Part shown: positions 1,055-52,671 of the stretch, in pieces
Position numbering within the stretch: position 1 is the first letter of the stretch
Layout of the letters: every line of letters starts with the position of its first letter
Source of the DNA: an uncultured Acidobacteriota bacterium
GTDB taxonomy: Bacteria; Acidobacteriota; Vicinamibacteria; Vicinamibacterales; JAKQTR01
Direction: 5' to 3'
Length of the DNA: 64,000 nucleotides
Assembly (NCBI GenBank): GCA_963809475.1
Contig: CAWEJS010000002.1
Span: 471,722-535,721 of the forward strand
Translations under genes and position numbers: made by a program
The notes under the pieces: generated by a model
What the model was told of the DNA's origin: nothing
Databases searched by the model: none
What the model saw: the letters and a program-made list of their open reading frames with translations, nothing else

Positions 1055-1078
1055 GGGGTCAGACTCGCGTCTGACCCC
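1055..1078. terminator. hairpin between convergent genes (GGGGTCAGAC-tcgc-GTCTGACCCC)
   Basis: A perfect 10-bp inverted repeat with a 4-nt loop lies between the stop at 1030 (+) and the stop at 1085 (-). Confidence 0.55.
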
Positions 1079-1084: not shown

Positions 1085-2626
1085 TCAGCCCGGCTTTGAC
1101 ACCTCTCCGAGCACCTCCATCAGCACCGTGTTGTCGACCTCGACTCCGTAGCGCACGTCACCGATGCGCGCGGGGAGCGCGAATCTCAACGTGGCACCCG
1201 CCTTCTTCTTGTCGACGGCCATCGCCGCCCGGAGTTGAGCGGCGGTACTCTCGCCATACGTCGTGCGAAGGCCGACGCGGTCAAGGACCGTCGCAATCCG
1301 AGCGACGTCGCCGCCGTCGGCCATTCCCAGCCGTTCGGCGAGCCGTCCTTCCGCCACCAGCCCGATCGCGACCGCATCGCCATGCCGCATCGTGTAGCCC
1401 GAGACGGTTTCGACAGCGTGGCCGATCGTGTGCCCGAAGTTGAGCTTCGCCCGCTCGCCTCGCTCGAACGGGTCGGCTTCAACGACCCCGATCTTCACGC
1501 CAATCGTCTCGGCAATCTGGCGGAGGCTGCCGAAGGCCCGTGTCCCCTCGAGCGTGTCGAAGAGGCTCGGGCTCCCGATCACGGCATGCTTGACCACCTC
1601 GGCCATGCCGCTCACCCGTTCGACGGCCGGCAGCGTGGCAAGTGCCAGGGGGTCGGCCACGACCAGCGCGGGCGCGTGGAACGCCCCGACGAGGTTCTTC
1701 CCGGCCGGGAGATTCACGCCGGTCTTGCCGCCGACGCTGGCATCGACCATCGCCAGCAGCGTGGTGGGCACGTCGACCCACCGGACGCCTCGCATGAAGG
1801 TCGCAGCGGTGAAACCGGCGAGATCTCCAATCACGCCGCCGCCCAGGGCGATGACCGTGCCCGTCCGATCGAGACCGAGGCCAGCCAGACGTCCGCAGAG
1901 GCTGGCGCTCGACGCGGGAGTCTTCTGGGCCTCTCCGGCCGGAACGACGATGCGCGGGATGCCGTCCGGGAGTCGGGCCCCGAGACACCGAGCCACGTTC
2001 TCGTCCGTGACGAGCACGAACGGCCCGTCGAGACCTCGCGAAGCCAGCAGAGCCGGCAGTTCGTCGATCAACCCATAGCCCAGCGCGACGTCGTGCCGCA
2101 ACCCGGGCGCCTGCAGGGTGAGGGTGCGGAGCGCGATCGATTCCGCCACGTCGGCGACCGCCGCTGCGACGGTCCTGCCGGAGGTGTCGACGTGCTCGGG
2201 GAAGGACTCGTAGTGCGCCCGGCGGGATGCCAGCAGCCGGTCGAGCGTGCCGGCCGGATCGATGCCTGAGAGAAGCGGCCGCCCCTCGCCGTTCGCGAGT
2301 CTGGCCATCAGATCGGAGGAAGTCGCGTGCAGGCACACGATCGCGCCGGTTCGCTCCAGACGGCTCCGGCTGGCCGCATCGAGAAGCGCTCCGGCCCCGA
2401 GGGCAATGACCCGTCCGCCGCCTTCGGCGAGATCCGCGCAGCAGCCGGCTTCCAGTCGTCGAAACGCGGCTTCCCCGTCGCGCTCGAAGATCGCCGGGAT
2501 GGCAAGTCCGGCGCGCTGCGACACGAGCGCGTCCACATCGACGAACTCGCGGCCGAGTTGCGTCGCGAGCAGACGCCCGACGCTCGTCTTGCCGGCGGCC
2601 GGCGGCCCGTAGAGCATGATGTTCAC
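1085..2626 (-). CDS. aroKB: bifunctional shikimate kinase / 3-dehydroquinate synthase (AroK-AroB fusion)
   Basis: The N-terminus has a shikimate-kinase P-loop (LYGPPAAGKTSVGRLLA). The C-terminal 350 aa carry DHQ-synthase motifs (GGGVIGDLAGFTAATFMRGV, DASVGGKTGVN, FGHTIGHA). The likely start is GTG 2626, which overlaps the aroC stop as GTGA; ATG 2617 is the alternative. The ORF-track 5' extension is Arg/Pro-rich. Confidence 0.9.
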   Translation of the reverse strand: MNIMLYGPPAAGKTSVGRLLATQLGREFVDVDALVSQRAGLAIPAIFERDGEAAFRRLEAGCCADLAEGGGRVIALGAGALLDAASRSRLERTGAIVCLHATSSDLMARLANGEGRPLLSGIDPAGTLDRLLASRRAHYESFPEHVDTSGRTVAAAVADVAESIALRTLTLQAPGLRHDVALGYGLIDELPALLASRGLDGPFVLVTDENVARCLGARLPDGIPRIVVPAGEAQKTPASSASLCGRLAGLGLDRTGTVIALGGGVIGDLAGFTAATFMRGVRWVDVPTTLLAMVDASVGGKTGVNLPAGKNLVGAFHAPALVVADPLALATLPAVERVSGMAEVVKHAVIGSPSLFDTLEGTRAFGSLRQIAETIGVKIGVVEADPFERGERAKLNFGHTIGHAVETVSGYTMRHGDAVAIGLVAEGRLAERLGMADGGDVARIATVLDRVGLRTTYGESTAAQLRAAMAVDKKKAGATLRFALPARIGDVRYGVEVDNTVLMEVLGEVSKPG

Positions 2627-3825
2627 GGCCACAGGATCGACCCTTCCCGCCGCATCGGCAGGTCCTCCAGCCGCAGCCGGCGCAGGGCCTCGTAGCGAGG
2701 CTTCATCTCGGCCAGGGAGTCGCCGCCAAGCTTCTCGAGGAGCGCGTCCGCAATCACGACGCACACCATCGCCTCGCCGACGACGGCAGCGCGAGGCACG
2801 GCGCAGATGTCCGATCGCACGTGGCGGGCGGCGGACACGGCGCCGGTCGCCAGATCGACCGATCGAAGAGAGGCCGTCATCGTGGCGATCGGCTTCATCG
2901 CCGCGCGCACGACGAGCGGCTGGCCGTTCGTGATGCCGCCTTCCAGGCCGCCTGCGCGGTTGCTCCCGCGGACCAGACGCGATCCGTCGTCCGCGAGACC
3001 GAGTTCGTCGTGGACAGCCGTGCCGGGCAACCGCGCGTTCGTGAAGGCCTCGCCGATCTCGACCCCCTTGATCGCAGGGATGCTCATCAGCGCGGCCGCG
3101 AGCCTGGCTGTCAGGCGGCGATCCCAGTGCACGTGGCTGCCAAGCCCCGGAGGCACGCCGCAGGCGACCACGTCGAACACGCCCCCGACCGTATCACCCT
3201 CCCTGGCAGCCTCGCTGATGCGTTGGGCCATCGCGGCCGTACCCGACGCGGTCGGGCACGCCAGGTCGGAGAGCGCTGCCTGCTCCAGCCTGGCTTCGAG
3301 GGACATCGCAGACAGATCCGCCGCCACGCCGCCGATTTCGGCGACGTAGCTGCCCACCGAGACGCCGAATTCCACGAGGAGCTTCCGGCAGATCGCGCCG
3401 ACGGCGACACGCGCCGCGGTCTCGCGCGCTGATGACCGTTCGAGACCGAATTGCAGGTCCGTGTAGCCGTACTTCAAGGCGGCGGCGAGATCGGCGTGTC
3501 CCGGGCGGGGCACCGTCATCGGCTCGACGGCGCGTCCTTTCCAGTTCGCGTGATCACGGTTGCCGACCTGGACGGCAATCGGGGCGCCGGTCGTGACGCC
3601 ATCCAGCACGCCGCCGAGTATCTCGAGGGAGTCGTGCTCGAGGCTCATTCGCGGACTTGCGCCTCGATACGGACGGCCAGCCGGGCCGAGACCCCGGCGC
3701 CGCGCCAGATCCGGATCAATGTCGGCGGCGCTCATCGCGAGCCCCGCAGGCATCCCCTCCAGGATTGCGACGACTGAGGGTCCGTGCGATTCGCCGGCGG
3801 TCAGGAACCGGAGCCTCGAGTTCAT
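2623..3825 (-). CDS. aroC: chorismate synthase
   Basis: MNSRLRFLTAGESHGPSVVAILEGMPAG is a typical AroC N-terminus, and the length fits. ATG 3825 overlaps the aroA stop (ATGA). Confidence 0.95.
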   Translation of the reverse strand: MNSRLRFLTAGESHGPSVVAILEGMPAGLAMSAADIDPDLARRRGLGPAGRPYRGASPRMSLEHDSLEILGGVLDGVTTGAPIAVQVGNRDHANWKGRAVEPMTVPRPGHADLAAALKYGYTDLQFGLERSSARETAARVAVGAICRKLLVEFGVSVGSYVAEIGGVAADLSAMSLEARLEQAALSDLACPTASGTAAMAQRISEAAREGDTVGGVFDVVACGVPPGLGSHVHWDRRLTARLAAALMSIPAIKGVEIGEAFTNARLPGTAVHDELGLADDGSRLVRGSNRAGGLEGGITNGQPLVVRAAMKPIATMTASLRSVDLATGAVSAARHVRSDICAVPRAAVVGEAMVCVVIADALLEKLGGDSLAEMKPRYEALRRLRLEDLPMRREGSILWP

Positions 3826-5138
3826 CCTGCCTCCAACCTCTCTGCGGCCGACAAGGACTGCTGCACGCGCAACCCGTCGAGCACCTCGAAGTACCTCGGG
3901 AACGTCTTGGACACACACGAGGGATTCTCGATGGACACACCGGGGACACGAAGGCCCACGAGCGCAAACGCCATCGCCATGCGATGGTCGCCGTACGTGC
4001 GGATGGTGGCCGCGCGCATCTCGCGGCAGGGCTGAATCACGAATCCGTCCGCCCGCTCTTGAACCGCGACGCCGAGTCTCGAGAGTTCCCTGCAGGTCGC
4101 CGACACCCTGTCACATTCCTTGAGACGGGCCGAAGCAATGCCGCGCACCGTGGTCGGCGAGCCGGCGAACGGCGCGACAGCCGCGAGCGTCTGGGCCGTG
4201 TCGGGAATGTCGCCCAGGTCCACATCGACGCCTCGCAACTCCCGCGATCCGGTCACCTGAACCCAGCCGCCGCCTTCCTCGACCCGGCATCCCATGGCCG
4301 ACAGGACGTCCAGAAACTGGATGTCTCCCTGCCGCGAGCCGCGCGAGATCTTCTCGACTCTCACCGTGCCGCCTGCGATGGCGGCCGCGCCGAAGAAATA
4401 GGAGGCGGCCGAAGCGTCGCTCTCGACGTCGAAGACGGGCCGGCCGCGATACCGGCCGCAGGGGACGGCGAAACGCCGATACCCGTCGCGCGCGACTTCG
4501 ATGCCGAAGTCGGCCATGACGGCCAGTGTCATGTCGACGTAGGGCTTCGAGGACAGCGGCCGGCCAACCACCACCTCCACCGGTGACCGCGCGTACGGCG
4601 CAACGAGCAGGAGAGCGCTCACGAACTGGCTGCTCGTGTCCCCGTCAATGGCCGCCCGCCCGCCGGCCAGGCCATTCGCCTGGACCCGGACGGGCGGGCA
4701 GCCCGTCGGACACTCGATGGCGGCGCCGAGTTGTCTCAGGCCGTCGAGGAGATCCCCGATCGGCCGCTCACGCATCCGCGGACTTCCGTCGACCACGAAG
4801 TCGCCAGACCCGAGCGTCGTGAGCGCCACGAGAAAGCGAGCCGCCGTTCCGGCGTTCCCAACGTCAAGCCTGGCGCCGCAAACGGGAATGCGTCCCCCAA
4901 ACCCGTCCACGCCCGTGGTTCCGGCACCGCCTGCGCCGACATTCACGGAGAAACCCAACTGCTCGAGCGACTCGACCATGCGGACCGTGTCGTCGGCCAC
5001 CAACACATTCGTCAGCACCGTCGAACCCTCGGCGAGCGCGGCGACCACCAACGCGCGGTTCGTCAGACTCTTCGAGCCAGGCACGCTGACGGAGGCGCGA
5101 AGGAGATGGCCGACGGGAGCGATCGCGGCGGTGTCCAC
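3822..5138 (-). CDS. aroA: 3-phosphoshikimate 1-carboxyvinyltransferase (EPSP synthase)
   Basis: The LPGSKSLTNRAL-type motif (VPGSKSLTNRALVVAALAEG) is present, and the 438-aa length fits. Confidence 0.95.
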   Translation of the reverse strand: MDTAAIAPVGHLLRASVSVPGSKSLTNRALVVAALAEGSTVLTNVLVADDTVRMVESLEQLGFSVNVGAGGAGTTGVDGFGGRIPVCGARLDVGNAGTAARFLVALTTLGSGDFVVDGSPRMRERPIGDLLDGLRQLGAAIECPTGCPPVRVQANGLAGGRAAIDGDTSSQFVSALLLVAPYARSPVEVVVGRPLSSKPYVDMTLAVMADFGIEVARDGYRRFAVPCGRYRGRPVFDVESDASAASYFFGAAAIAGGTVRVEKISRGSRQGDIQFLDVLSAMGCRVEEGGGWVQVTGSRELRGVDVDLGDIPDTAQTLAAVAPFAGSPTTVRGIASARLKECDRVSATCRELSRLGVAVQERADGFVIQPCREMRAATIRTYGDHRMAMAFALVGLRVPGVSIENPSCVSKTFPRYFEVLDGLRVQQSLSAAERLEAG

Positions 5139-5144
5139 GGCTGA

Positions 5145-6062
5145 TCACGGGCTCCGGCGCATCGAGTTCGAATCGGTGACGCGACGGCGGGCAGCCGCGC
5201 ACATCCGTTCACGCCACATCTGTGCCTCGTCGAAGACCCGCTCGAGCGGAAGCGCGGTGGCGGCGTGCGTCTTCATGTGGTCGAGCGCCCCGATCAACTC
5301 GTCCAGCGCGACGCGGATGTTGTCCGCGTTTGTCAGGCAGATGTCGCGCCAGATCTCGAACGAGCTGTCCGCAAGCCGGGTCGTGTCCACGAGTCCGGGG
5401 CCGGCAAGCTCGAGACCCGCGTCCCCCGCCCCTTCGCCAGCCACGCGCATCAGGGCCGACGCCGCCAGTTGCGGAAGGTGGCTGATGAAGGCCAGGACGC
5501 GGTCGTGCTCGGCTGCACTCATCACGTGCGGCTCGGCGCCGAGCGTCCTCACGAACGCGCACAGCCGCGCCAGGACCTCGGGCGGCGTGCCTCCCTCAGG
5601 CGTGAGCACCCAGGGCCGCGCCGAGAAGAGGTCGGCCGTCGCCGCGTCGATCCCGCGCGAAGCCGCGCCGGCAATCGGATGCCCACCGACGAACGTGAGC
5701 GATCCGCCCGTGCCGCGCGCCGCGTCGACCATGACCCGCTTCGTGCTGCCGACATCGGTCACGATGGTGGCCGGGGAGACGTGACGGGCCACCTGCCTGA
5801 CGAGCTCGACGTTCTGCCGAACGGGCGCCGCCAGGATCACCAGGTCGGCCCTGGCGACGCTGTCGAGTTGCTCCGACGCGACGTCAACGACGCCGCGATC
5901 CAGGGCCGTGCGAAGCACGTCAGCCCGGTCGATCCCGGCAATGGCGGTGGCAGGCCGTGCTCTGCGGATGCCCAGCGCGATCGATCCGCCGACGAGCCCG
6001 AGGCCGACGATGGCAATGCGTTCAAATTCGGCGCCAGCCACGCCCGAGTCGGCTTCACTCAT
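5145..6062 (-). CDS. tyrA: prephenate dehydrogenase
   Basis: An N-terminal Rossmann motif (IAIVGLGLVGGS) and GGHPIAG are present. Operon context supports the call. Confidence 0.85.
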   Translation of the reverse strand: MSEADSGVAGAEFERIAIVGLGLVGGSIALGIRRARPATAIAGIDRADVLRTALDRGVVDVASEQLDSVARADLVILAAPVRQNVELVRQVARHVSPATIVTDVGSTKRVMVDAARGTGGSLTFVGGHPIAGAASRGIDAATADLFSARPWVLTPEGGTPPEVLARLCAFVRTLGAEPHVMSAAEHDRVLAFISHLPQLAASALMRVAGEGAGDAGLELAGPGLVDTTRLADSSFEIWRDICLTNADNIRVALDELIGALDHMKTHAATALPLERVFDEAQMWRERMCAAARRRVTDSNSMRRSP

Positions 6063-7218
6063 GCGGTGTCCCCTGCTCGTCGCCGGTTGACCGGCCGGAC
6101 CAGCCTGATCGTGCGTCCGCAGCCTGCTGCCGGCCGGCCGTCCAGCCCCGCCTCGCGGTCGGCTCGACGCAGATGCGCCGGCCGATGGCCGGCGCGATGA
6201 TCCGGAGTTCGGCCATCAGCCGATCGAACTGATCCGGGTAGAGCGACTGCGCGCCGTCGCTCAGCGCGTGGTCCGCGTCGCAGTGCACCTCGACGAGCAG
6301 GCCGTCAGCGCCGGCCGCGACAGCCGCGCGCGCCATTGGCACGACCTTGTCGCGCCGGCCGGTTCCATGGCTCGGATCCACGATAATCGGCAGGTGGCTC
6401 AGCTTCTTGACGACAGGAATCGCCGAGAGGTCGAGCGTGTTGCGTGTGGCGCTCTCGAAGGTGCGGATCCCCCGTTCGCACAAGACGACCGCTTCGTTCC
6501 CGCCGCTCAGCAGGTATTCGGCCGAGAGCAGCCATTCCTCGATCGTCGCTGAGATGCCGCGCTTGAGCAGGACCGGCTTGCGCGCATGGCCCAGCTCGCG
6601 GAGCAGGGTGTAGTTCTGCATGTTCCTCGCGCCGACCTGGAGCATGTCCGCGTAGCGGTCGACGATCTCGATCTGGGTGATGTCCATGACCTCGGACACC
6701 AGTTTCAGATCGTGCTGGTTCGCCGCCGCCCGGAGCATGCGCAGCCCGTCCTCGCCGAGGCCCTGGAAGCTGTACGGCGAACTGCGCGGCTTGAACGCGC
6801 CGCCTCGCATGATCTTCGCCCCCGCCCGCTTCACCGCCGCGGCCGTGGCCTCCACCTGCTCGTCGGTTTCCGCCGAGCAGGGACCCGCCATCACGATCAC
6901 CTCGCTGCCGCCGATCCGCACGTCCCCCACGGCAACGACGGTCCCGTCGGGCTTGAACGTGCGGCTCGCGAGCTTGTACGGCTCGGTGATCCGCAGCACC
7001 TCGAACACGCCGCTCAGGATTTCGATGCGTTCCGGCTCGACCGATCTCGTGCCTCCCACCGCTCCGAGCACGGTCCGCGAGGTGCCTGTCGAGCGGTGCA
7101 CCGCGAGACCCATCTCGACCAGCCGGGCGATCACCTGTTCGATCTGATCCTCGCTCGCTCGTTCTTCCATGACGACCACCACGGCAAGCTCCTTTCCCTG
7201 TGTCCACGCCACGCTCAC
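6055..7218 (-). CDS. 3-deoxy-7-phosphoheptulonate (DAHP) synthase, type I-beta with N-terminal ferredoxin-like/ACT-like regulatory domain
   Basis: The core matches the KDO8PS-like DAHPS family (GAFKPRSSPYSFQGLG, LLKRG, DPSH). An extra N-terminal domain of about 70 aa (VVVMEERASEDQIEQVIARLVEMG) resembles Thermotoga-type enzymes. An unusual C-terminal tail of about 35 aa overlaps the tyrA start by 8 nt. Confidence 0.9.
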   Translation of the reverse strand: MSVAWTQGKELAVVVVMEERASEDQIEQVIARLVEMGLAVHRSTGTSRTVLGAVGGTRSVEPERIEILSGVFEVLRITEPYKLASRTFKPDGTVVAVGDVRIGGSEVIVMAGPCSAETDEQVEATAAAVKRAGAKIMRGGAFKPRSSPYSFQGLGEDGLRMLRAAANQHDLKLVSEVMDITQIEIVDRYADMLQVGARNMQNYTLLRELGHARKPVLLKRGISATIEEWLLSAEYLLSGGNEAVVLCERGIRTFESATRNTLDLSAIPVVKKLSHLPIIVDPSHGTGRRDKVVPMARAAVAAGADGLLVEVHCDADHALSDGAQSLYPDQFDRLMAELRIIAPAIGRRICVEPTARRGWTAGRQQAADARSGWSGRSTGDEQGTPHE

Positions 7219-7538
7219 CTGTCCGGGCCGCTGACTGGCGCCGGACCGGCGCGCCCGCCCTCGCGAGCGGTGCCGCCGGCCATCTCGAGCTGGCGCGCCT
7301 CGTCGATGATCCGCTCGAAGAGCCGGCCGATGGCCTCTTCCGTCAGCGGCCCGCCCAGGTTCGCCGTGATCGCGCGCGCGCGGCGCACGACCGCCGCCTC
7401 CCGGTCGGGTTCGTAGATCGGCGAACCGCGCTCCCGTTTCAGCCGGCCAATTTCGATGGCGCAGGCGGCGCGAGTGTTCAGCAGCGCCACGAGCTGCTCG
7501 TCAATCACGTCGATTCGCTCCCGCAGTTCGTCGATCAT
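7215..7538 (-). CDS. chorismate mutase (AroQ class)
   Basis: MIDELRERIDVIDEQLVALLNTRAACAIEIGRLK... is a typical CM type II helix. ATG 7538 overlaps the trpA stop (ATGA), and the stop overlaps the DAHPS GTG start (GTGA). Confidence 0.85.
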   Translation of the reverse strand: MIDELRERIDVIDEQLVALLNTRAACAIEIGRLKRERGSPIYEPDREAAVVRRARAITANLGGPLTEEAIGRLFERIIDEARQLEMAGGTAREGGRAGPAPVSGPDR

Positions 7539-8368
7539 GATTCCTCGCCCGCTGTCGCGCCTCGATCGGTCCCTTCGCCGAGCAGCCACCGCACGTGGCC
7601 CCGCACCCGTTCCTCCAGGTCCGGTTCATTTCCGGCCTCCGCGATGACGCTCACGATGCTGCTGCCGACAACCGCGGCGTCGGCCGAGCGGCAGACTTCG
7701 CGGACCTGATCCGGATGCGAGATGCCAAAGCCGAGCGCAACAGGCAGCTGGCTCTCCGCCCGGATCCGGCCGACCAGATCTCGCGAGCCGGGGGGCAGCG
7801 ACGCTCGCGCGCCAGTGACGCCGAGCCGGGAGATGGCGTACAGGAACCCGCTCCCGAGCGCTGCCGCCTCTTGGATCCGCTCGGTGCTGGTGGTCGGGCT
7901 GATCAGGAAGATCACGTCGATTCCGGCGCGCGCCAGGGCCGCGCGAGCCTCTCCCGCTTCTTCGATCGGGAGGTCCAGCACGAGTACGCCGTCGACGCCT
8001 GCCTTTGCCGCGATCTCGGCAAACCGTTCGATGCCGAGCCGGAAGATCGGGTTTGCATAGCTGAACAGCACCAGCGGCGCGCTGAGTCTCGGCCTGACTT
8101 GCGCGACGAGATCGATCACCGCTCCGAGCGTCGTGCCGGCCGCCAGCGACCGCTCCGCCGCACGCTGGATGACCGGGCCGTCGGCGACAGGATCGGAGAA
8201 CGGCACGCCGATCTCGATCACGCTCGCCCCGGCGGTCTCGAGCGCCACGAGAATCTCGCCCGAGCGATCGAGATCCGGGTCACCGGCGGTGACGTAGGTC
8301 ACAAGCTTCGGGCGTATTTGCAGGCGCAGACGATCGAAGGTGGAGGACAGGCGTGACATCATCAGCAC
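7535..8368 (-). CDS. trpA: tryptophan synthase alpha chain
   Basis: The TrpA family sequence reads through (VTAGDPD, IEIGVPFSDPVADGPVIQ). The start is GTG 8368, or ATG 8362/8359. Confidence 0.93.
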   Translation of the reverse strand: MLMMSRLSSTFDRLRLQIRPKLVTYVTAGDPDLDRSGEILVALETAGASVIEIGVPFSDPVADGPVIQRAAERSLAAGTTLGAVIDLVAQVRPRLSAPLVLFSYANPIFRLGIERFAEIAAKAGVDGVLVLDLPIEEAGEARAALARAGIDVIFLISPTTSTERIQEAAALGSGFLYAISRLGVTGARASLPPGSRDLVGRIRAESQLPVALGFGISHPDQVREVCRSADAAVVGSSIVSVIAEAGNEPDLEERVRGHVRWLLGEGTDRGATAGEES

Positions 8369-9625
8369 TCAGGGATGAGGCGTCGGGGATTCCGAGTCCG
8401 GCGTGGCGTGCGCGGCGGCGACTGATCGAGTGACGGTGTCAGCGTCCTTGTCGCCGCGTCCGGACAGATTGACGAGCACGATCCGATCGGGCCCGAGCTC
8501 CCGCGCGAGAGCGCACGCAAACGCGACGGCGTGTGCCGATTCGAGCGCCGGCAGAACCCCCTCGAGCCTGGACAGAGTGACGAACGCCTCGAGGGCCTGG
8601 TCGTCGGTGACCCACGTATACTCCGTTCGTTTCAGGTCCCTCAGCCAGGCGTGTTCCGGACCGACGGCCGCGTAGTCGAGGCCGGCCGAGATGGAATGGG
8701 TCGGCTCGATGTTGCCCGCCTCGTCCTGCAGCACGAACGAGCGGGTCCCCTGCAGCACGCCCGCGCTTCCCGACGCGAAACGGGCGGCGTGCCGCCGGGG
8801 ACGAAGCGCGTCGCCGCCCGCCTCGACGCCGATCAGGCGGACGCGTTCGTCCGGCACGAAGGCGTCGAAGATGCCGAGCGAGTTGCTGCCGCCGCCGACG
8901 CAGGCGACGACCGCGTCCGGCAGACGGCCAGCCGCAGCCAGTATCTGCGCGCGCGCCTCGCGTCCGATCACCGACTGGAACTCGCGGACCATCAGCGGAT
9001 ACGGGTGCGGCCCGAGCACCGAACCCAGCAGGTAGTGCGTGTCGTCGACGTGTGCGACCCAGTCCCGCATGGCTTCGTTGATCGCATCCTTCAGCGTGCG
9101 GCTGCCTGCGTCGACGCGCGTGACCGACGCGCCGAGCAGGCGCATCCTGGCGACGTTCGGCGCCTGGCGGTCCATGTCCTCCGCGCCCATGTAGATGTCG
9201 CATCGAAGGCCCAGCAGGGCACAGGCGGCCGCCGTGGCCACACCGTGCTGCCCCGCGCCGGTCTCGGCCACGACGCGCGTCTTCCCCATCCGCGCGGCGA
9301 CGAGCGCCTGGCCCAGGGCGTTGTTGATCTTGTGGGCGCCCGTGTGCGCAAGATCCTCCCGTTTGAGGAAGATGCGAGCGCCGCCGGCCTCCCGGGCGAG
9401 ACGCTTCGCCTCGAAGAGCGCCGTCGGCCGGCCGACGTAGTCGCGAAGCAGTTGCGCCAGCTCCCGGGTGAACGCGGGGTCGTCGCGGGCCCGCAGGTAC
9501 TCGGCTGTCAGCGCCTCGACCGGGGCCACGAGCGTCTCGGGCACGAAGCGCCCGCCGTACGCGCCGAAATACCCGCGCGCGTCAGGATCCCGCCGGCCCC
9601 AGACAATCTCAGTCTGCTGGTTCAT
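8369..9625 (-). CDS. trpB: tryptophan synthase beta chain
   Basis: [24 protein letters not shown] and GGGSNS motifs are present. ATG 9625 overlaps the trpF stop (ATGA). A short, unusual Pro/Ser-rich C-terminal tail follows. Confidence 0.95.
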
Positions 9626-10251
9626 CTTCTTGCCCCGCCCGCGGTGGATCGAATCGCGTCGAACAACTGCTGGAGACGGCCATGGTCCTTGACTCCCGGA
9701 TCGCATTCGACTCCGGACGACACATCGACGCCATCGGGTTCAACGGCGCGGATCGCGGCGACCACGTTCTCAGGGCTGAGACCGCCGGCCAGAATGGTCC
9801 GCCGGCCGCGCGCCACCTCCCGTGCCGCCACCCAGTCGATGGTCCGGCCCGTTCCACCGCGAGCTACGGGATCATCGACGTCGAGGAGCACTGTCGCATT
9901 GGCAGGCACACTGGCAATTGCCGCCATGCGGAACCCCCTGCCGACCGGCACGGCCTTGATGACGGGCGCTGCGATTCGTGCGCAGTAGTCCGCTGTCTCG
10001 GCGCCGTGAAGCTGAACAGCCCCGAGGCGCAGTGACTGTGCAACCTCGTTGACGTGTTCCGCTGACTGATTCACAAACACTCCCACCCGTGCAACCGACG
10101 CCGGCAGACCGCGCGCGACGTCGCCGGCGTCCCTCGGCTGGATGAACCGGCGGCTTCCCGGCCAGAAGACGAAGCCCACCGCGGCGGCTCCGAGGTCCGC
10201 CGCGAGCCACGCATCCTCCCGTCGCGTGATGCCGCAGACTTTCACCCACAT
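9622..10251 (-). CDS. trpF: phosphoribosylanthranilate isomerase
   Basis: [14 protein letters not shown] is a typical TrpF N-terminus, and the 209-aa length fits. Confidence 0.92.
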
Positions 10252-11063
10252 CTCGGGTCACCTCCGGCTCGCCCGGCGGCCGACTCGGCGGCCCGCAGCA
10301 ATTCGGCCAGGGCCGCCCCTGGCTCCGGACTGCTCATCAGGTGCCCGCCAATCAGGAAGGCGTGATATCCGAGCCCCCGCAGTCGCGCCAGGTCCTCGGG
10401 CGAAGAGATACCACTCTCCGCAACGGCCACGGCACCCTCCGGCAGACACCCGGCGAGCGCCGCGCTCCCGGCCAGGTCCACTTCGAGCGTCTGCAGGCTT
10501 CGACTGTTCACGCCGATGAGCGTGGCGCCCCTGTCGATCGCGCGATGCAGATCGGGCTCATCATGCACTTCGACCAGCACGGAGAGATCGAGGCGGCGTG
10601 CTTCCGTGAGCAGGTCGCTGAAGCTCCGATCGTCGAGGGCGGCCGCAATCAGGAGCACCGCGTCGGCTCCGGCAGCACGCGCTTCGAGCAGCTGATACGC
10701 GTCGACGATGAAGTCTTTGCGCAGCACCGGAAGATCGACCACCTCGCGCACCTCGCTCAGGTGATCGAGCGCGCCCTCGAAGAACCTCGGCTCCGTCAGG
10801 ACCGACACCGCAACGGCGCCGGCGCGCTGATAGGCTTGCGCGATGCGGCCGGGCCGATACGGGGATCGAAGTACGCCCGCGGATGGCGATCGCCGTTTGC
10901 ACTCGGCGATCACGTTGATACGCCCGGGCCTCGACAGCGCGGCGACGAACGATCCCGCGCGCGGCGTGCGATCGCGAGCCAGCCTCTCCAGCGCCGGCTG
11001 CGGCACCCTGGCCTTGGCTGCGGCAAGGCCTCTTCGGACAGACGCCATGATCTCGTCCAGCAC
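10242..11063 (-). CDS. trpC: indole-3-glycerol phosphate synthase
   Basis: The TrpC body is present (VIAECKRRSPSAG, LRKDFI, IGVNSRSL). The start is uncertain: GTG 11063 (VLDEIMAS...) or ATG 11048. The ORF-track 5' extension overlaps trpD and is Arg-rich. Confidence 0.9.
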   Translation of the reverse strand: MLDEIMASVRRGLAAAKARVPQPALERLARDRTPRAGSFVAALSRPGRINVIAECKRRSPSAGVLRSPYRPGRIAQAYQRAGAVAVSVLTEPRFFEGALDHLSEVREVVDLPVLRKDFIVDAYQLLEARAAGADAVLLIAAALDDRSFSDLLTEARRLDLSVLVEVHDEPDLHRAIDRGATLIGVNSRSLQTLEVDLAGSAALAGCLPEGAVAVAESGISSPEDLARLRGLGYHAFLIGGHLMSSPEPGAALAELLRAAESAAGRAGGDPRCG

Positions 11064-11143
11064 GTTCGGCGCGCGGCCCTTTCGCTGCGGCGGACCGCTC
11101 GCGCGCTGACCGGACGCTGCGCCGTGTGGCCGTGGCCCGTCCG

Positions 11144-12172
11144 TCACGACACGGCTCCATCGTCTGTCTGCGACAGGGCCGCCAGCCTGGCGAGTGTCTG
11201 CAGGGCATCGCCTCGATCGATCGCTGCGGCGGCCATCGCCGCGCCGTCCCCGATGCTCGTCGCATGGCCGGCGATGAAGAGCGCCGCACCGGCGTTGAGG
11301 AGCACGACGTCGCGGGCGGGCCCACGCGTCCCCTTCAGAACGTCGAGCGCAATCGCCGCGTTCGCGGCGGTCGTGCCGCCGGCGAGCGCGGCCAGGCTCG
11401 ACGTCGGCAGGCCGGCGTCTGACGGGTGGACGTAGAACGTGCTCACCGTTCCACTCCGGCATTCAGACACCTTCGAGTACCCCGTCGTCGATAGCTCGTC
11501 GAGGCCGTCGGCGCCGTAGACGACCCAGGCGCGTTCGGACCCCAGCGACAGCAGCGCCCGCGCGAGGAGCTCGGTCAGCCCGGGGCTCGGGACGCCGACG
11601 AGCTGGCGTGCGGGGCCGGCCGGATTCGTGATGGGGCCGAGCAGGTTGAACGCCGTGCGGATGCCCAGTTCGCGCCGGACCGGCGCCGCGTGCCGCATCG
11701 AGGGATGAAACACGGGCGCGAACAGGAACGCGATGCCCGCTCCGTCGAGGTAGCCTGCCACCGTCGCCGGCGGCGCCGAGATGCGGACGCCGAGCGCCTC
11801 GAACACGTCGGCACTGCCGCAGGAGCTGGAGACGGCACGATTGCCGTGCTTGGCGACGCGGACGCCCGCACTCGCGGTCACGACGGCGGCCACCGACGAG
11901 ATGTTGAACGTGCCCGTGCGGTCGCCGCCTGTGCCACAGAGATCGAACACCGGCTCGGCGCGTCGCGGGAGCGGCAGCGCCTGCTTCCGCATCGTGCGGG
12001 CGAGCCCGACGATTTCGCCCGGCTGCTCGCCCTTCATGGCCAGGCCCACGAGCAGCCCGGAGATCTGCGTCGCGCTGGCGCGCCCCTCCATGATTTCCTG
12101 CATCGCCGCCGCGGCTTCGTCTGCCGTGAGGTCCTGCCTGCGACGCAGTTTCTCGAACACCTGTCTGAACAT
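11144..12172 (-). CDS. trpD: anthranilate phosphoribosyltransferase
   Basis: CGTGGDRTGTFNIS and VAKHGNRA motifs are present. Confidence 0.95.
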   Translation of the reverse strand: MFRQVFEKLRRRQDLTADEAAAAMQEIMEGRASATQISGLLVGLAMKGEQPGEIVGLARTMRKQALPLPRRAEPVFDLCGTGGDRTGTFNISSVAAVVTASAGVRVAKHGNRAVSSSCGSADVFEALGVRISAPPATVAGYLDGAGIAFLFAPVFHPSMRHAAPVRRELGIRTAFNLLGPITNPAGPARQLVGVPSPGLTELLARALLSLGSERAWVVYGADGLDELSTTGYSKVSECRSGTVSTFYVHPSDAGLPTSSLAALAGGTTAANAAIALDVLKGTRGPARDVVLLNAGAALFIAGHATSIGDGAAMAAAAIDRGDALQTLARLAALSQTDDGAVS

Positions 12173-12188
12173 CGGCTGTCCTCGGCCC

Positions 12189-12758
<570 letters not shown>

Positions 12759-12782
12759 CGCGCGCTCCAGGTTCCGACGGGT

Positions 12783-14261
12783 CTACCACTGAGCGGACGC
12801 GGCCAATTCGAGCGCCTCGACGAGCGCCTTGGCTTTTGCGCATGTCTCGTCGAACTCGGCGGCCGGCACCGAGTCGGCCACGATGCCCGCGCCCGCCTGG
12901 ATCCGGGCGATCCCGCGCTCGATCACGATTGTCCGGATGGCGATGCAGAAATCGAGGTTCCCGGCGAAGTCGACGTACCCGACGGCGCCGGCATAGATGC
13001 CCCGGCTTGCCGGCTCCAGTTCAGCGATGATCTGCATCGCCCGCACCTTGGGGGCACCCGAGACCGTGCCGGCCGGGAAACAGGAGGCCAGCGCGTCCAG
13101 GCGGTCGCAGCCCGCAGCGAGCCTCCCTTCGACGATCGACACCAGGTGCATGACGTGCGAATATCGCTCGACGGCCATGAACCTGGGCACGCGCACGGAG
13201 CCAATCTCGCTCACGCGCCCGATGTCGTTGCGGCCGAGGTCGACGAGCATGACGTGTTCAGCGCGCTCCTTCTCGTTCGCTTCGAGCTCGTCGGCCAGCT
13301 TCAGGTCCTCCTCGTCGGTCCGCCCGCGCGGGCGCGTGCCGGCGATCGGGTGCGTTTCGATCCGGGTTCCCTCGGCCCGGACCAGCATCTCGGGCGAGGC
13401 GCCCGCAATCGCCGTCGATCCCATGCGGAGGAAGAACATGTACGGCGACGGGTTGACGTGGCGCAATGCGCGATAGACGCGGAACGGATCCGCGTCGATC
13501 TCCGCCTCGAAGCACTGCGACAGCACGACCTGGCAGATGTCGCCGGCCGCGATGTACTCCAGCGCGCGGCGGACGCCCGCTTCGAACCGTTCACGCGTCA
13601 CGTTGGATCGGATCTCCAGTCGTCGATGGTGAGAAGGCTCCTGATGTGACAGCTCGCGCCTGAGCTCCTGCTCGAGGAACTCGATTCGGGCGCACCCGAA
13701 CCGGTAGAGCGCCTCGAGGTCGGCGCCCGGAGTCACCTGCGCGTTGGCGATGATCAGGATCCGATGCTGCGCGTGATCGAACGCCAGGATCGTGTCGAAG
13801 ATCATGAGCGCTGCCGGGATGTCGGGCGCGTGGCCGTCAGAGCGGGCCATGCTCTCAACGAGCGTCGGCTCGAACCACGCTGCCGCTTCGTACCCGACGT
13901 AACCGACGGCCCCCCCGGTGAAGCGGGGAAGGCCCGGCACTGCCGGCGCGCGATACTCGGCCATCAACCGGCGCAGCACGGCCATGAGCGGTTCGTCGAC
14001 ATCGGTGGTGGATCCCGAGCGGTCGATGGTGGTCCTGGCGCCGCTCGCCCGCACGACGAGCAACGGGTCCTTCCCGAGGAACGAATACCGCGCCACGTGT
14101 TCGCCTCCCTCGACGCTCTCGAGCAGGAAGGCGTAGTCGGTGTGCTCCGCAATCCGGAGGAACGCTGACACTGGCGTCAGCAGATCCGCCATGATCTCCT
14201 TCCAGATCGGCACGAATGTGCCGCGCCGTGCCAGCTCCACGAACTCATCGAACGACGTCAT
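12783..14261 (-). CDS. trpE: anthranilate synthase component I
   Basis: ATG 14261 is preceded by AGGAGA. The protein starts MTSFDEFVELARRG and has a chorismate-binding domain (GTVSGAPK, GIYAGAVGY). The ORF-track upstream extension of 184 codons overlaps aroDE and looks non-coding. Confidence 0.95.
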   Translation of the reverse strand: MTSFDEFVELARRGTFVPIWKEIMADLLTPVSAFLRIAEHTDYAFLLESVEGGEHVARYSFLGKDPLLVVRASGARTTIDRSGSTTDVDEPLMAVLRRLMAEYRAPAVPGLPRFTGGAVGYVGYEAAAWFEPTLVESMARSDGHAPDIPAALMIFDTILAFDHAQHRILIIANAQVTPGADLEALYRFGCARIEFLEQELRRELSHQEPSHHRRLEIRSNVTRERFEAGVRRALEYIAAGDICQVVLSQCFEAEIDADPFRVYRALRHVNPSPYMFFLRMGSTAIAGASPEMLVRAEGTRIETHPIAGTRPRGRTDEEDLKLADELEANEKERAEHVMLVDLGRNDIGRVSEIGSVRVPRFMAVERYSHVMHLVSIVEGRLAAGCDRLDALASCFPAGTVSGAPKVRAMQIIAELEPASRGIYAGAVGYVDFAGNLDFCIAIRTIVIERGIARIQAGAGIVADSVPAAEFDETCAKAKALVEALELAASAQW

Positions 14262-14268
14262 CTTCACG

Positions 14269-15753
14269 TCACTCTCCTGAAACTGAAGAGGTCCGATCGC
14301 GGCTGGCCACGGCGGTTCCGGCCGCGAGACGGCGCCCGGCGGCGGCGCGCATGGCCGCCACGGGCGCCGCGCGCCCGTTCCACCACTCGGCCTGCAGCGC
14401 GGCCTGTGCGACCAGCATGGGAAACCCGCCAATCGTCCTGCACCCGGCTGCCCTCGCCTCGCGGAGCAGCCGCGTTTCGGCTGGGTTGTACACGAGGTCG
14501 TAGACCAGGCCGCCGTCGAGGTGGCTCGCGGGGATCGGGGTCTCGTCGTCGCGGGGGACCGTCCCGACCGGCGTCGCATTGACCAGCAGATCCCACGTGC
14601 CGCATCCGGGGAGCCCGGTGCGGGCGTGGCCACCCACCGCGCGGGCCACCGCCGCCGCGCGCTCGAGTGTCCGGCCATAGACGGTGACGTGCGCGCCGGC
14701 CGAGGCGAGGGCCGCGGCGACCGACCGGGCGGCGCCGCCGCAGCCCAGGATCGCGGCACGCGCGTTCGCCAGATCCTCGCGACCGGCAAGCGGCTCGAGG
14801 AAACCGGCCACATCCGTGTTGCGGCCGATCCACTCGCCTCCCCGGCGGGCGATCGTGTTCACGGCGCCGACTCGCGTGGCCACGTCGTCCAGCCTGTCCA
14901 TCCTGCCTGCGAGGTCGACCTTGAGCGGCGCGGTCACGGCCATGCCTCTCACATCCATCGCTTCGGCAAACGCCAGCACGTCGTCTGCCGAGTCGGAGTG
15001 GAGCGGCACGAAGGCGGCGTCGATGCCAAGTGCGGCGAAACAGGCGTTGTGCAACGCGGGTGAAAGGGAATGGTCGAGCGGCGCGCCGGCGACTCCGTAG
15101 ATCCGCGTTCCGCTCGTGATGGAGCGGAAGCCGTACTCGTCGAGGAGACGGGCCACCGGCAGCTGGCCCGGCGCCGCGTCCCCGGCGTAGGTCCAGCACG
15201 AACCGAACCGCGCGGCGAGCACGCGCGTGGGCAATCCGGCGGCCCCCATGCCCACAACCACCGTCTTCGCCAGCGCGCCCCGTGTCAGATCGAGCAGACG
15301 CAGGCAGTCGCTGAGCCGCCGGACATGGACAGCGAGCTTGATGACTTCCGCCCCTGTGGCTCTCATGGCGGTGCAGATGAGGGCGAGATCGGGCGGCACG
15401 CCGCTGTAATCGTGCACCGACAGCACGAGACCCCTGCCGCCGCGGCACCGGACCAGATCGAGGAATCCGGCCCGCCACTCGACGTCCACGTACGCGGCGC
15501 CCAGCGCGATCGCCTCGGCGAGGATGGCGTGACGTTCCTCTTCGCTTCCGTGGAACTGCCCTCCCTCCCACGCCGGGCGGCAGGTGATGACGAGCGGAGT
15601 GGCGCAGCCGGCGAGCGCGGCCGGAACGTTGACGTCCTGCACACCGTCGAGCCGGAGCTCGATCAGGTCGGCGCCGCGGACGGCGTCGCGGCGACGGCGA
15701 AGTTCTTCCGTCGTGGCGGCCGTGACCGTGGCGCACAGAAGCGGTTCCGTCAT
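14269..15753 (-). CDS. aroDE: bifunctional 3-dehydroquinate dehydratase (type I) / shikimate 5-dehydrogenase (AroD-AroE fusion)
   Basis: The N-terminal 230 aa look like type I DHQase (LIELRLD, ITCR). The C-terminal half is AroE-like (IYGVAGAPLDHSLSPALHN, AILGCGGAARS). ATG 15753 is preceded by GAAGG. Confidence 0.88.
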   Translation of the reverse strand: MTEPLLCATVTAATTEELRRRRDAVRGADLIELRLDGVQDVNVPAALAGCATPLVITCRPAWEGGQFHGSEEERHAILAEAIALGAAYVDVEWRAGFLDLVRCRGGRGLVLSVHDYSGVPPDLALICTAMRATGAEVIKLAVHVRRLSDCLRLLDLTRGALAKTVVVGMGAAGLPTRVLAARFGSCWTYAGDAAPGQLPVARLLDEYGFRSITSGTRIYGVAGAPLDHSLSPALHNACFAALGIDAAFVPLHSDSADDVLAFAEAMDVRGMAVTAPLKVDLAGRMDRLDDVATRVGAVNTIARRGGEWIGRNTDVAGFLEPLAGREDLANARAAILGCGGAARSVAAALASAGAHVTVYGRTLERAAAVARAVGGHARTGLPGCGTWDLLVNATPVGTVPRDDETPIPASHLDGGLVYDLVYNPAETRLLREARAAGCRTIGGFPMLVAQAALQAEWWNGRAAPVAAMRAAAGRRLAAGTAVASRDRTSSVSGE

Positions 15754-15772
15754 TCGGAGCCTTCGGATGAAG

Positions 15773-15808
15773 CAAAAAGCCTCTTCAACCGGTCTGGCTG
15801 AAGAGGCT
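15773..15808 (-). terminator. intrinsic terminator in the 5' leader of the aromatic operon (attenuator terminator)
   Basis: The minus-strand RNA reads AGCCUCUUCA-GCCAGACCGGU-UGAAGAGGCU followed by UUUUGCUU. The stem is a perfect 10 bp, extendable into the loop. It ends 20 nt upstream of the aroDE ATG. Confidence 0.8.
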
Positions 15809-15848
15809 CTGAAGAACTGCCGGTGAAGTTCCAGTCTGGCAGACCCCC

Positions 15849-15989
15849 TCAGTGGTCGATGTCCCTCCACCAATAGGAGCAGGCAACGCCGGAGATCGTC
15901 GACAGACCGCCGCCCGCGCACGGGACGCCGCTCGGAGGCGGCATCCACGGAATCAGCGACGCACGGCGGAGATGTATGTTCACGATCAT
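15849..15989 (-). CDS. candidate leader peptide (46 aa) with Tyr-Trp-Trp near its C-terminus
   Basis: ATG 15989 gives MIVNIHLRRASLIPWMPPPSGVPCAGGGLSTISGVACSYWWRDIDH-stop. Tandem TGG codons lie at 15872-15867, and the stop is at 15851-15849. The ORF sits between a promoter-like element and the terminator. The SD (GGGA) is weak and close to the ATG, so the start is uncertain. Confidence 0.55.
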   Translation of the reverse strand: MIVNIHLRRASLIPWMPPPSGVPCAGGGLSTISGVACSYWWRDIDH

Positions 15990-16005
15990 TCGTCCCAAGC
16001 TCGCG

Positions 16006-16034
16006 ACAGTATCAGAGCTCGCGAGAGGTGTCAA
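16006..16034 (-). promoter_or_regulatory. sigma-70-like promoter of the aromatic operon leader
   Basis: The minus strand reads TTGACA (16034-16029), a 17-nt spacer, then TGa-TACTGT (extended -10, 16011-16006). The predicted TSS is about 10 nt before the leader ATG. Confidence 0.55.
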
Positions 16035-16195
16035 AGACGCTCCCGCCGCGATTGGCGAATCGTGTACCGTGATCTACAATGTCGGCGCGTTCATCATCGA
16101 GCCGGTGCGGGTGAGACTCTCCCGGGAAGGCCGCGCAGCGGCGATGGAGCGACGACCTTGCGCCATGCACCACCGGCGCTGAGAAGGGATACGGG

Positions 16196-16810
16196 ATGGT
16201 GCAGGGAACAGGTGACACGGGTGAGACGAGAGCCTCGGGCCTCCGGCCCGCTTCCGAGGCGGAACGAGAGGAACTGACGGCCCTTGGGATCTTGTCCGGC
16301 GGCGGCGAGCTGCTGGCGCCACCGCCGAAACCCGGCGCCACGTCAACCCGGCCGATGGTCCCGAGGCGCGCCATCACCGCGCATCAGGTCCTCAACGAAG
16401 CCTATGCCTACCCGCGCCCCTCGTCGTTTGCGCGCGGGATTCGCTTCGATCCCGGCGAGACCTCGTTGTTGCTCATCTCGGGAACGGCCAGCGTGGACGA
16501 GGCGGGCCTGACCGCACACGTGGGAAATTTCCGGGCGCAACTCTGGCGCACCTATCGCAACATCACGGCCCTTCTCGCCGCCGAGGGCGCCTCCTGGCAC
16601 GACATCGTCCGCACGACCTGCTATCTGCGCGACATCGAGCGCGACTACAGGGATTTCAACGACATCCGCACGGCGTTCTTCGGGTGGCTCGGGCTCGATC
16701 CGCTTCCGGCCAGCACCGGCATCCAGGCGAGGCTGTGCCGCGAGGATCTGCTGGTCGAGATCGAAGCGATTGCCGTCGTGGCCGCCGGGAAGCCGGCTGC
16801 GCGGGTGTGA
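16196..16810 (+). CDS. RidA/YjgF (endoribonuclease L-PSP) fold protein
   Basis: LLISGTASVDEAGL...VGNFRAQLWRTYRNITALLAAEGASWHDIVRTTCYL...PASTGIQA...LLVEIEAIAV fits the YjgF/RidA-fold pattern. The start is uncertain: 16196 or the internal ATG 16355. Confidence 0.7.
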   Translation: MVQGTGDTGETRASGLRPASEAEREELTALGILSGGGELLAPPPKPGATSTRPMVPRRAITAHQVLNEAYAYPRPSSFARGIRFDPGETSLLLISGTASVDEAGLTAHVGNFRAQLWRTYRNITALLAAEGASWHDIVRTTCYLRDIERDYRDFNDIRTAFFGWLGLDPLPASTGIQARLCREDLLVEIEAIAVVAAGKPAARV

Positions 16811-52586: not shown

Positions 52587-52660
<74 letters not shown>

Positions 52661-52671
52661 CTCTCGTAATT

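Follow-up and report, generated by a model that had tools for sequence, protein, structure and literature searches.

The window analysed here is a 64,000-nucleotide stretch (positions 471,722 to 535,721) of contig CAWEJS010000002.1 from an uncultured Acidobacteriota bacterium of the order Vicinamibacterales (GenBank assembly GCA_963809475.1). Between positions 1085 and 15753 its minus strand carries 14 tightly packed, co-directional genes of aromatic amino acid synthesis, in the order aroD-aroE fusion (aroDE), trpEGDCFBA, AroQ chorismate mutase (CM), DAHP synthase (DAHPS), tyrA, aroA, aroC and aroK-aroB fusion (aroKB), and upstream of them lie a short open reading frame (ORF) rich in Trp and Tyr codons and a terminator hairpin, by which the whole operon is very probably switched. 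Because of the high G+C content of the window (about 69-70%), long spurious ORFs are abundant on both strands, and gene identities were therefore set by Pfam and NCBIfam profile searches of the ORFs. These searches placed every enzyme named in a preliminary description of this DNA, the coordinates, gene list and order of which were correct. The block encodes 16 enzyme activities in its 14 genes, namely the seven shikimate steps, the seven polypeptides of the Trp branch, chorismate mutase and TyrA, and the domain hits bear out the proposal that all of these lie together. Common-pathway genes, Trp-branch genes and tyrA are contiguous and co-directional, in an arrangement that is conserved in relatives, as expected of an aromatic supraoperon.

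The first gene, aroDE (14269-15753), encodes a type I dehydroquinase and shikimate dehydrogenase of 494 aa, with Pfam matches to DHquinase_I and to Shikimate_dh_N, Shikimate_DH and SDH_C, and an NCBIfam aroE score above cutoff. It is followed by trpE (12783-14267; anthranilate synthase I, with Anth_synt_I_N and Chorismate_bind domains and a TIGR00564 score of 533 bits, above cutoff), trpG (12189-12758; glutamine amidotransferase, GATase, 2e-55), trpD (11144-12172; Glycos_trans_3N and Glycos_transf_3) and trpC (10242-11063), in which the match to IGPS begins with the residue encoded at about 11060 and the start is ambiguous between GTG 11063, ATG 11048 and GTG 11147. The gene trpF (9622-10251; PRAI) overlaps trpC by 10 nt, trpB (8369-9625; TIGR00263, 600 bits) shares an ATGA with trpF, and trpA (7535-8368; Trp_syntA, 1e-83) shares another with the gene of the AroQ-class chorismate mutase (7215-7538; 107 aa, CM_2), which scored 70.2 bits with TIGR01807, just above cutoff. 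The gene for a type I-beta DAHPS (6055-7182; DAHP_snth_FXD and DAHP_synth_1), the start of which was set from relatives, overlaps by 8 nt with tyrA (5145-6062; PDH_N and PDH_C), which encodes a prephenate/arogenate dehydrogenase core without an ACT domain. The block ends with aroA (3822-5138; EPSP synthase, EPSP_synthase, 1e-113), aroC (2623-3825; chorismate synthase, Chorismate_synt, 3e-109), which is joined to aroA by an ATGA overlap, and aroKB (1085-2626), which encodes a shikimate kinase and dehydroquinate synthase of 513 aa (SKI, DHQ_synthase and DHQS_C; TIGR01357 above cutoff) and starts with VAVNIMLYGPPAAGKT, as in relatives.

The DAHPS carries an N-terminal ferredoxin-like domain (PF18152, DAHP_snth_FXD, 2.9e-19), scored 488 bits against a cutoff of 335 with NF006421, and aligned over residues 1-337, its full length including the ferredoxin-like domain, with the Thermotoga maritima enzyme (1rzm/3pg9, E = 1.8e-107), in agreement with its earlier assignment as a type I-beta enzyme with a regulatory N-domain. 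By analogy with the Thermotoga enzyme, Tyr and Phe are the likely ligands of this domain.

Start codons were assigned from the in-frame candidates, the purine-rich motifs upstream of them and the N-termini of homologues in relatives. Seven stop/start overlaps had been claimed, and all of the strings are present, with GTGA at 2623-2626 and 7215-7218, ATGA at 3822-3825, 7535-7538 and 9622-9625, ATGAGTGA (8 nt) at 6055-6062 and ATGTGGGTGA (10 nt) at 10242-10251. However, the overlap at 7215-7218 is probably non-functional, since the DAHPS start conserved among relatives (VVVVMEERASE) corresponds in the window to GTG 7182, which is preceded by AAGGAG and leaves a spacing of 32 nt between the CM and DAHPS genes. 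With trpC starting from GTG 11063, the trpD-trpC junction has the largest possible gap in the block, 80 nt, which is the maximum that had been claimed. The alternative trpC start at GTG 11147 would overlap the trpD stop (GTGA, 11144-11147) and add a low-complexity N-terminal extension of 28 aa. In relatives, the trpD-trpC junction ranges from a 4-nt overlap (L099) up to gaps of 170-190 nt (L005 and L007).

Profile searches with hidden Markov models confirmed that each of the two proposed fusions is a single polypeptide (AroDE, ORF 15753..14269; AroKB, ORF 2626..1085). Among 5.8 billion proteins searched, more than 3,900 were homologous to AroDE at E <= 1e-30, and the best 120 of these, from NCBI, JGI, ENA and Logan assemblies, all had both the DHquinase_I and the shikimate dehydrogenase (SDH) domains (120/120; 462-528 aa). 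Full-length AroKB fusions were present on dozens of metagenome contigs. Since they are conserved in relatives, the fusions are not assembly errors. Reading the AroDE translation by eye, we found SVHDY and IKLAV, which we take to be the His and Schiff-base Lys motifs of the type I dehydroquinase (DHQase) half, and SLSPALHN, TAPLK, NTD and GCGGAAR, presumably motifs of the SDH half; as far as these stretches indicate, the catalytic motifs are intact in both halves. For AroKB, PRK14021 aligned with residues 5-499 and PRK13951 with residues 1-506, both below their equivalog cutoffs, and the aroB model TIGR01357 scored above its cutoff.

The best solved-structure match of AroDE was the Arabidopsis DHQ-SDH 2gpt, which covered both domains (E = 2.5e-73 over residues 4-465), and PRK09310 (DHQase/SDH) aligned residues 6-459 with model positions 2-454 of 477. 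Like AroDE, the Arabidopsis (2gpt/6bmb) and chlamydial (PRK09310) DHQ-SDH proteins have a type I DHQase followed by SDH in one chain, with alignment over the full length. However, AroDE scored only 170 bits with the chlamydial PRK09310 equivalog model, against a cutoff of 598, and therefore falls outside that subfamily. In addition, the SDH half matched the stand-alone bacterial AroE 2egg with 147 bits over 253 residues, a per-residue similarity comparable to that of the plant match, so that there is no specific relationship between AroDE and the plant enzyme to claim. The suggestion that AroDE mirrors plant DHQ-SDH thus holds for the domain order and the best structure match, but does not extend to a specific kinship.

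The control region (15774-16034) is located in the 440-nt divergent intergenic region upstream of aroDE, just beyond the end coordinate of the preliminary description, from which it is absent. It begins with a putative sigma-70-type promoter, TTGACA-N17-TACTGT (16034-16006), of the conserved pattern TTGACA-N17-TAnnGT. The -35 hexamer TTGACA (16029-16034), read from the sequence, has a TTGACA or TTGACG counterpart in 11 related loci, in the same position and separated from TAnnGT by 17-18 nt, and the -10 hexamer TACTGT (16006-16011) is represented in relatives by TACCGT, TAGCGT, TAACGT or TACGCT. The support for TACTGT is phylogenetic conservation only, since its agreement with the consensus is too weak for a promoter scanner. 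The promoter is followed by a leader ORF of 46 codons, MIVNIHLRRASLIPWMPPPSGVPCAGGGLSTISGVACSYWWRDIDH (15849-15989), which runs from ATG 15989, or possibly from GTG 15983, to TGA 15849, ends in SYWWRDIDH and has homologues in 17 related loci. Its putative regulatory codons, TAT TGG TGG (Tyr-Trp-Trp, 15867-15875), contain a TGGTGG that occurs nowhere else within 400 nt upstream of aroDE.

The leader stop (TGA, 15851-15849) is overlapped by the predicted antiterminator 5' strand ACTGAGGGGGTC (15842-15853), which can pair with the 5' arm of the terminator in a duplex of -15.9 kcal/mol. The predicted intrinsic terminator itself, GAGCCTCTTCAGCC/AGACC/GGTTGAAGAGGC followed by TTTTT (15774-15809), is a 14-bp hairpin of -24.1 kcal/mol located 20 nt before the aroDE start at 15753. 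The full-length leader RNA folded better than all of its shuffles (z = -3.1), with the terminator formed in the fold. When folding was constrained by a ribosome on the Trp codons, 11 of the 14 arm bases paired with the antiterminator strand, and with the ribosome at the stop, 5 of the 14 did so. The leader thus combines a short ORF with clustered Trp codons, an intrinsic terminator before the first gene and a computed, mutually exclusive antiterminator pairing, as leader-peptide attenuators do. A direct scan for T-runs showed that the TTTTT of this terminator is the sole run of at least four T on the sense strand between 900 and 16100, and that no hairpin with a T-run, hence no canonical terminator, interrupts the 14-gene block; that the only canonical intrinsic terminator of the 15-kb unit is found in front of the block is itself the signature of an attenuator.

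Searches of the whole window at the Rfam gathering threshold revealed no match of the leader to Trp_leader or another curated leader family, a T-box or a known riboswitch, and at E <= 10 the region 15700-16200 gave two chance hits only, neither to a leader family. TRAP-type control was considered and rejected, as a series of spaced (G/U)AG triplets is absent from the leader. The central part of the leader (15900-15935, minus strand) is conserved as SGV(V/P)CAG(G/S/V)G in L095 and L099-L103, the leaders of which are otherwise divergent, and forms a long GC hairpin in the fold of the window leader; a pause or 1:2 structure, instead of selection on the peptide itself, could underlie this conservation.

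At the other end of the block, 6 nt past the aroKB stop and between convergent genes, sequence and fold revealed a GC-rich, perfect 10-bp hairpin, GGGGTCAGAC-GCGA-GTCTGACCCC (1055-1078, minus strand), with no T-run on either strand. This hairpin probably marks the end of the transcription unit and is a candidate bidirectional terminator lacking a U-tract.

The genome collection contained 13 AroDE loci, two of them in the complete chromosomes OZ252227.1 and OZ253543.1; 12 of the 13 are titled as Acidobacteriota or Vicinamibacterales metagenome-assembled genomes (MAGs), and L002 as an uncultured Bifidobacteriaceae MAG. L002 (CAYJPQ010000005.1, "uncultured Bifidobacteriaceae bacterium") has the full Vicinamibacterales-type operon and leader at 55-75% identity, and this MAG is probably mislabelled or contaminated. 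The order aroDE-trpEGDCFBA-CM-DAHPS-tyrA is kept in 10 Vicinamibacterales genomes at an AroDE identity of only 50-57%, the tail tyrA-aroA-aroC-aroKB is kept in L015, and L099 has aroDE through aroA, up to the end of the contig. The synteny comparison that had been proposed for the block therefore found its order conserved in relatives, including both complete chromosomes.

The control region is conserved together with the genes. In 11 complete Vicinamibacterales loci, with AroDE identities of 50-57%, a promoter of the form TTGAC(A/G)-N17/18-TAnnGT, a short ORF encoding WW or WWW, and a T5-7 tract preceded by a GC hairpin were all present; a twelfth locus, L011, is clipped by the contig end and has only the hairpin and T-run left. 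The leader and terminator were likewise present in five closer metagenome relatives, from a set retrieved via exact-protein look-ups. Every trp-containing locus (16/16) has WW or WWW in its leader. In the window and in each of the 11 relatives, TGGTGG occurs a single time within the 400 nt upstream of aroDE, and in every case it lies 95-110 nt ahead of the T-run. Of the 12 more distant leaders, 11 have the Trp run flanked by Tyr codons, and some relatives have Phe codons at the control site (WWYHWF, WWYCAF and FYWWYF).

Constrained folding of 12 loci gave the same two states throughout. When the ribosome occupied the Trp codons, the terminator 5' arm (13-15 bases) paired with the upstream G-rich strand through 8-14 of its bases; when the ribosome was at the leader stop, this partner was masked and 0-8 arm bases paired, weakly. 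Relative to the leader stop, the partner strand is located within -25 to +9 nt in 12/12 loci. In each of these its binding to the arm is stronger than that of shuffled sequence, and in five it surpasses all 300 shuffles. The terminator helix had 95.9% of cells paired in an alignment of 17 sequences, with compensatory changes at four pairs, and the antiterminator helix had 94.6% of cells paired in 17 leaders, compared with 40-56% in slid registers. This arrangement corresponds to the four-segment logic known from classical attenuation of the trpL type.

Neither pheA (PDT domain) nor an aromatic aminotransferase was found in the operon or in any confidently coding ORF of the 64-kb window (Pfam searches, which across the 48 kb outside the block covered all ORFs with coding-like GC3), so that their absence, previously noted for the operon, holds for the whole window. 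The sole class I/II PLP enzyme of the window (about 59.9-61.1 kb), a candidate aromatic aminotransferase, proved to be a PatB-family C-S lyase (NCBIfam, above cutoff). In distant lineages with the order DAHPS-tyrA-aroA-aroE-aroC-aroKB, the gene just upstream of DAHPS, read by eye, is pheA-like in three loci (L047, L071 and L086), where it was recognised by a terminal PheA-type ACT domain with the ESRP motif, and AroH-type mutase-like in two (L026 and L036). The absence of pheA from the window is therefore a real difference from these lineages. No leader or terminator was found ahead of the DAHPS-led operons in these five loci.

Some relatives have lost the trp block, and their leaders differ accordingly. 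Where trpE follows aroDE, the leaders read YSYWWYSDH (L099), FYWWYFSDH (L100), YSYWWW (L102) and YSYWWWYSDH (L103). In L095-97 and L101, by contrast, the trp block is missing and the order is aroDE-CM-DAHPS-tyrA-aroA-aroC-aroKB, with promoter, leader and terminator retained; their control stretches, AYAYSYRWSYTGH in L095-97 and AAYSYRWSYPGH in L101, have three or four Tyr codons and a single Trp, reading AYAYSYRWSY or AAYSYRWSY in place of YSYWW(W). The P0002 contig has the same trp-less gene list (gene list only). Since loss of the trp block is accompanied by fewer Trp codons and by Tyr codons that are kept or increased, the leader codons track the products of the operon. No leader was detectable upstream of aroDE in L010 (aroDE then tyrA) or L016 (aroDE-aroA-aroC-aroKB), both of which have no CM-DAHPS beside aroDE. 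As trp-containing operons span 50-76% AroDE identity, the full supraoperon is probably ancestral in the group, from which the trp-less forms would have arisen. Modularity of the block is evident from the different combinations in which the aroDE head, the trp block and the CM-to-aroKB part, with its Thermotoga-like core, occur.

The closest relative, L098:1-2111 (ENA ERZ27241349 k141_870047; 87% AroDE identity), bears a deletion scar that joins about 55 codons from the start of trpE directly to the final ~30 codons of trpA, with CM next in order; in its upstream region the leader breaks off immediately behind TTGGTGGTATAG, and the terminator is missing. L098 may be either a deregulated strain variant or an assembly oddity. 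The clear scar is confined to L098, no TrpA remnant being recognisable at the AroDE C-terminus of the trp-less L095 and L101.

The data establish the gene identities, both fusions, the junctions, the conservation of gene order, leader ORF, terminator and antiterminator, and the correlation of leader codons with operon content; from these we infer a single transcript, amino-acid-dependent read-through and an allosteric ligand of DAHPS. The reading that we favour, with a probability of about three in four, is that the block forms a single transcription unit of some 15 kb and that ribosome-mediated attenuation, responding to tRNA-Trp and probably also to tRNA-Tyr, gates it, with translational coupling and allosteric control of DAHPS. 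Transcription would start from the conserved sigma-70-type promoter (16034-16006) and pass first through the leader ORF of 46 codons. With an ample supply of charged tRNA-Trp, and probably of tRNA-Tyr, the ribosome would reach the leader stop and cover the G-rich strand ACUGAGGGGGUC, the hairpin and U-tract would form, and transcription would stop 20 nt before aroDE. A ribosome stalled at UAU-UGG-UGG would leave the G-rich strand free to pair with the terminator 5' arm, and RNA polymerase would read into the 14 genes. The stop/start overlaps and very short spacers would then keep expression of the genes in step, and the ferredoxin-like domain of DAHPS would provide a further, enzyme-level control of carbon entry.

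The operon makes Trp and carries tyrA without pheA, and its leader carries Trp and Tyr codons. It is conceivable, and we suggest it tentatively, that one leader reads Trp and Tyr together, exactly the end products with branch genes in the operon, and that the control codons are re-tuned when the cargo changes (WW(W)+Y to YxYRWxY).

Several observations weigh against attenuation of a single unit as we propose it. The -10 hexamer is weak, with 3/6 matches, and was missed by the scanner. The antiterminator duplex had z values of only -0.3 to -1.3 against shuffles in several loci, and its covariation is mainly conservation and G-U-tolerant changes, with a double change at only one pair. The codon shift comes from essentially one trp-loss lineage, L095-97 and L101 being related, plus the gene list of P0002. 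In addition, the window leader has no Phe codon near the control site and Phe synthesis needs eight of the block's enzymes; because an attenuator responding only to Trp and Tyr would starve the cell of Phe when both are plentiful, basal read-through or a second promoter would be needed. Promoters could lie inside coding sequence, and the gaps of 130-190 nt at the trpD-trpC or CM-DAHPS junctions of relatives could hold them.

The data could thus also be explained by a conserved cluster of several transcription units, with internal promoters, for example ahead of trpE, the DAHPS gene and aroA, and an attenuator that governs only part of the genes, as in the Bacillus subtilis supraoperon, a precedent for partial control by internal promoters. 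In favour of such extra promoters are the need for a Phe supply that does not depend on Trp and Tyr status, the larger trpD/trpC and CM/DAHPS spacers of relatives and the evolutionary modularity of the block. We nevertheless consider this explanation rather unlikely, since in the window no spacer exceeds 80 nt and most junctions overlap, no hairpin with a T-run is present inside the block, and the change in leader codons upon loss of the trp block implies that the leader senses on behalf of genes far downstream. A consensus promoter/terminator scanner also found no promoter-like site on the sense strand within the block, although this negative is weak on its own because the same scanner missed both the leader promoter, with its weak -10, and the attenuator terminator, the stem of which extends into the T-run.

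It is very improbable that the cluster represents an additional set of aromatic-pathway genes, dedicated to secondary metabolism. Redundant aro/trp supraoperons do exist (PMC1173090), and with 64 kb of the genome in view paralogues may be present elsewhere, but no tailoring, nonribosomal peptide or polyketide synthase, or export genes adjoin the block, the neighbours being genes for RidA-like, TPR and signal-peptide proteins; moreover, the arrangement is conserved across the order at 50-87% identity, and a Trp/Tyr leader attenuator is a hallmark of primary biosynthetic operons. Assembly error, through frameshift joins or a chimeric contig, is excluded for the fusions and can effectively be dismissed for the whole block. 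Nothing found favours it, although high-GC sequence is prone to spurious long ORFs, and the more than 3,900 AroDE homologues come from independent assemblies with the best 120 all fused, AroKB fusions recur on dozens of contigs, curated NCBIfam models exist for both bifunctional proteins, and the same gene order is found in chromosomes OZ252227.1 and OZ253543.1.

The attenuation that we propose resembles that of E. coli trpL, which likewise combines a short ORF containing consecutive Trp codons, antiterminator and terminator structures that exclude each other, and a U-tract terminator right before the first structural gene, and in which a ribosome at the leader stop masks the antiterminator strand. 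However, the E. coli leader has 14 codons and those of Vicinamibacterales about 44-46, Tyr codons flank the Trp codons in nearly all Vicinamibacterales members, which have no Rfam match, and trpL precedes trp genes only, whereas the attenuator proposed here fronts the whole common pathway and the Tyr branch. Attenuation of the trpL type is also known for the trp genes of Corynebacterium and Streptomyces (cited in PMC4833913). In another known block preceded by an attenuator, aromatic common-pathway genes and tyrA are likewise combined with a seven-gene trp operon, but the gene order is different, an alternative early-pathway enzyme pair is used, pheA is included and the shikimate steps are incomplete.

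In the aro-trp-hisC-tyrA-aroE supraoperon of Bacillus subtilis, control is by TRAP binding to (G/U)AG repeats, and hisC is a member; neither such repeats nor a hisC aminotransferase gene is present here. As in the block described here, aro genes, the trp operon and tyrA are co-directional in Bacillus, with stop/start overlaps (for the supraoperon concept, see PMC1173090). The Bacillus block has no DAHPS, aroD, aroE (SDH), aroK or trpG but includes hisC, whereas ours has all 16 activities and no aminotransferase, and is, as had been stated, the more complete of the two. Other aro/trp supraoperons occur in Desulfovibrio vulgaris and Nostoc (PMC1173090), and none of the three has been described with all seven shikimate steps and all trp genes.

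In the aro operon of Thermotoga maritima, the genes for every step of the common pathway, including a fused pair, surround tyrA (PMC1173090). This operon shares with the block described here the order DAHPS-tyrA-aroA-...-aroC-aroK·aroB, the aroK-aroB fusion (PRK13951 over the full length) and the ferredoxin-like domain of DAHPS, and the core order DAHPS-tyrA-aroA-aroC-aroK·aroB is widespread in metagenomes (L018, L026, L036, L047 and L071). Compared with Thermotoga, aroE has here moved forward to become the second half of a fusion with a type I aroD at the operon head, trpEGDCFBA and an AroQ mutase have been inserted between head and core, and a leader attenuator is present.

Taken together, the sequence evidence suggests a lineage-specific and unusually complete aromatic supraoperon, built from known kinds of fusion protein and apparently under classical ribosome-mediated attenuation. 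The testable parts of the preliminary description were supported, but its interpretation was incomplete, in that the leader attenuator and the conservation across the order were missed and one overlap probably does not mark the start in use. What the present analysis adds is the Trp/Tyr leader-peptide attenuator, which is conserved and co-varies with operon content. Acidobacteriota are abundant in soil and hard to grow, and to our knowledge almost nothing is known of their gene regulation. In the literature searched, coverage of which was partial so that an earlier mention is possible, we found no description of trp attenuation or an aromatic supraoperon in Acidobacteriota or Vicinamibacter, and the operon, if our reading is correct, might be the first documented case of classical attenuation in Acidobacteriota governing an entire pathway of 16 activities. 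A complete aromatic pathway minus the Phe branch under one predicted attenuator provides a concrete regulatory model for the phylum, and raises the physiological question of how the cell obtains Phe under abundant Trp and Tyr, with pheA unlinked and no Phe control codon in the window leader. The deletion variants with their parallel shift in leader codons represent an unusually clear case of operon and sensor co-evolving; should the dual Trp/Tyr readout hold, the Vicinamibacterales operons would form a natural series in which attenuator logic is readable from operon content. In addition, a compact 15-kb cassette of 16 activities could serve pathway engineering in high-GC hosts.

Upstream of the control region, on the opposite strand, a RidA-family gene begins at 16196 and is followed by a gene for a TPR/PD40 protein; downstream of the block, a convergent gene for a signal-peptide protein with no Pfam match ends at 1030. 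Elsewhere in the window, a TPP riboswitch (50625-50723, minus strand; 72 bits, above the gathering score) is located directly ahead of a gene for a TonB-dependent receptor (48253-50415, minus strand; Plug and beta-barrel domains), which probably represents thiamine-regulated uptake across the outer membrane. Genes for glucose-6-phosphate dehydrogenase and 6-phosphogluconolactonase are adjacent at 57396-59812 (minus strand), where the stop-to-stop frames overlap by about 500 nt and the start of the dehydrogenase gene needs refinement. Five tRNA genes were located, at 52587-52748 (plus strand), 29407-29483 (minus), 30134-30208 (plus) and 63542-63617 (plus), including a tandem tRNA-Arg(TCG)/tRNA-Arg(CCG) pair 10 nt apart.

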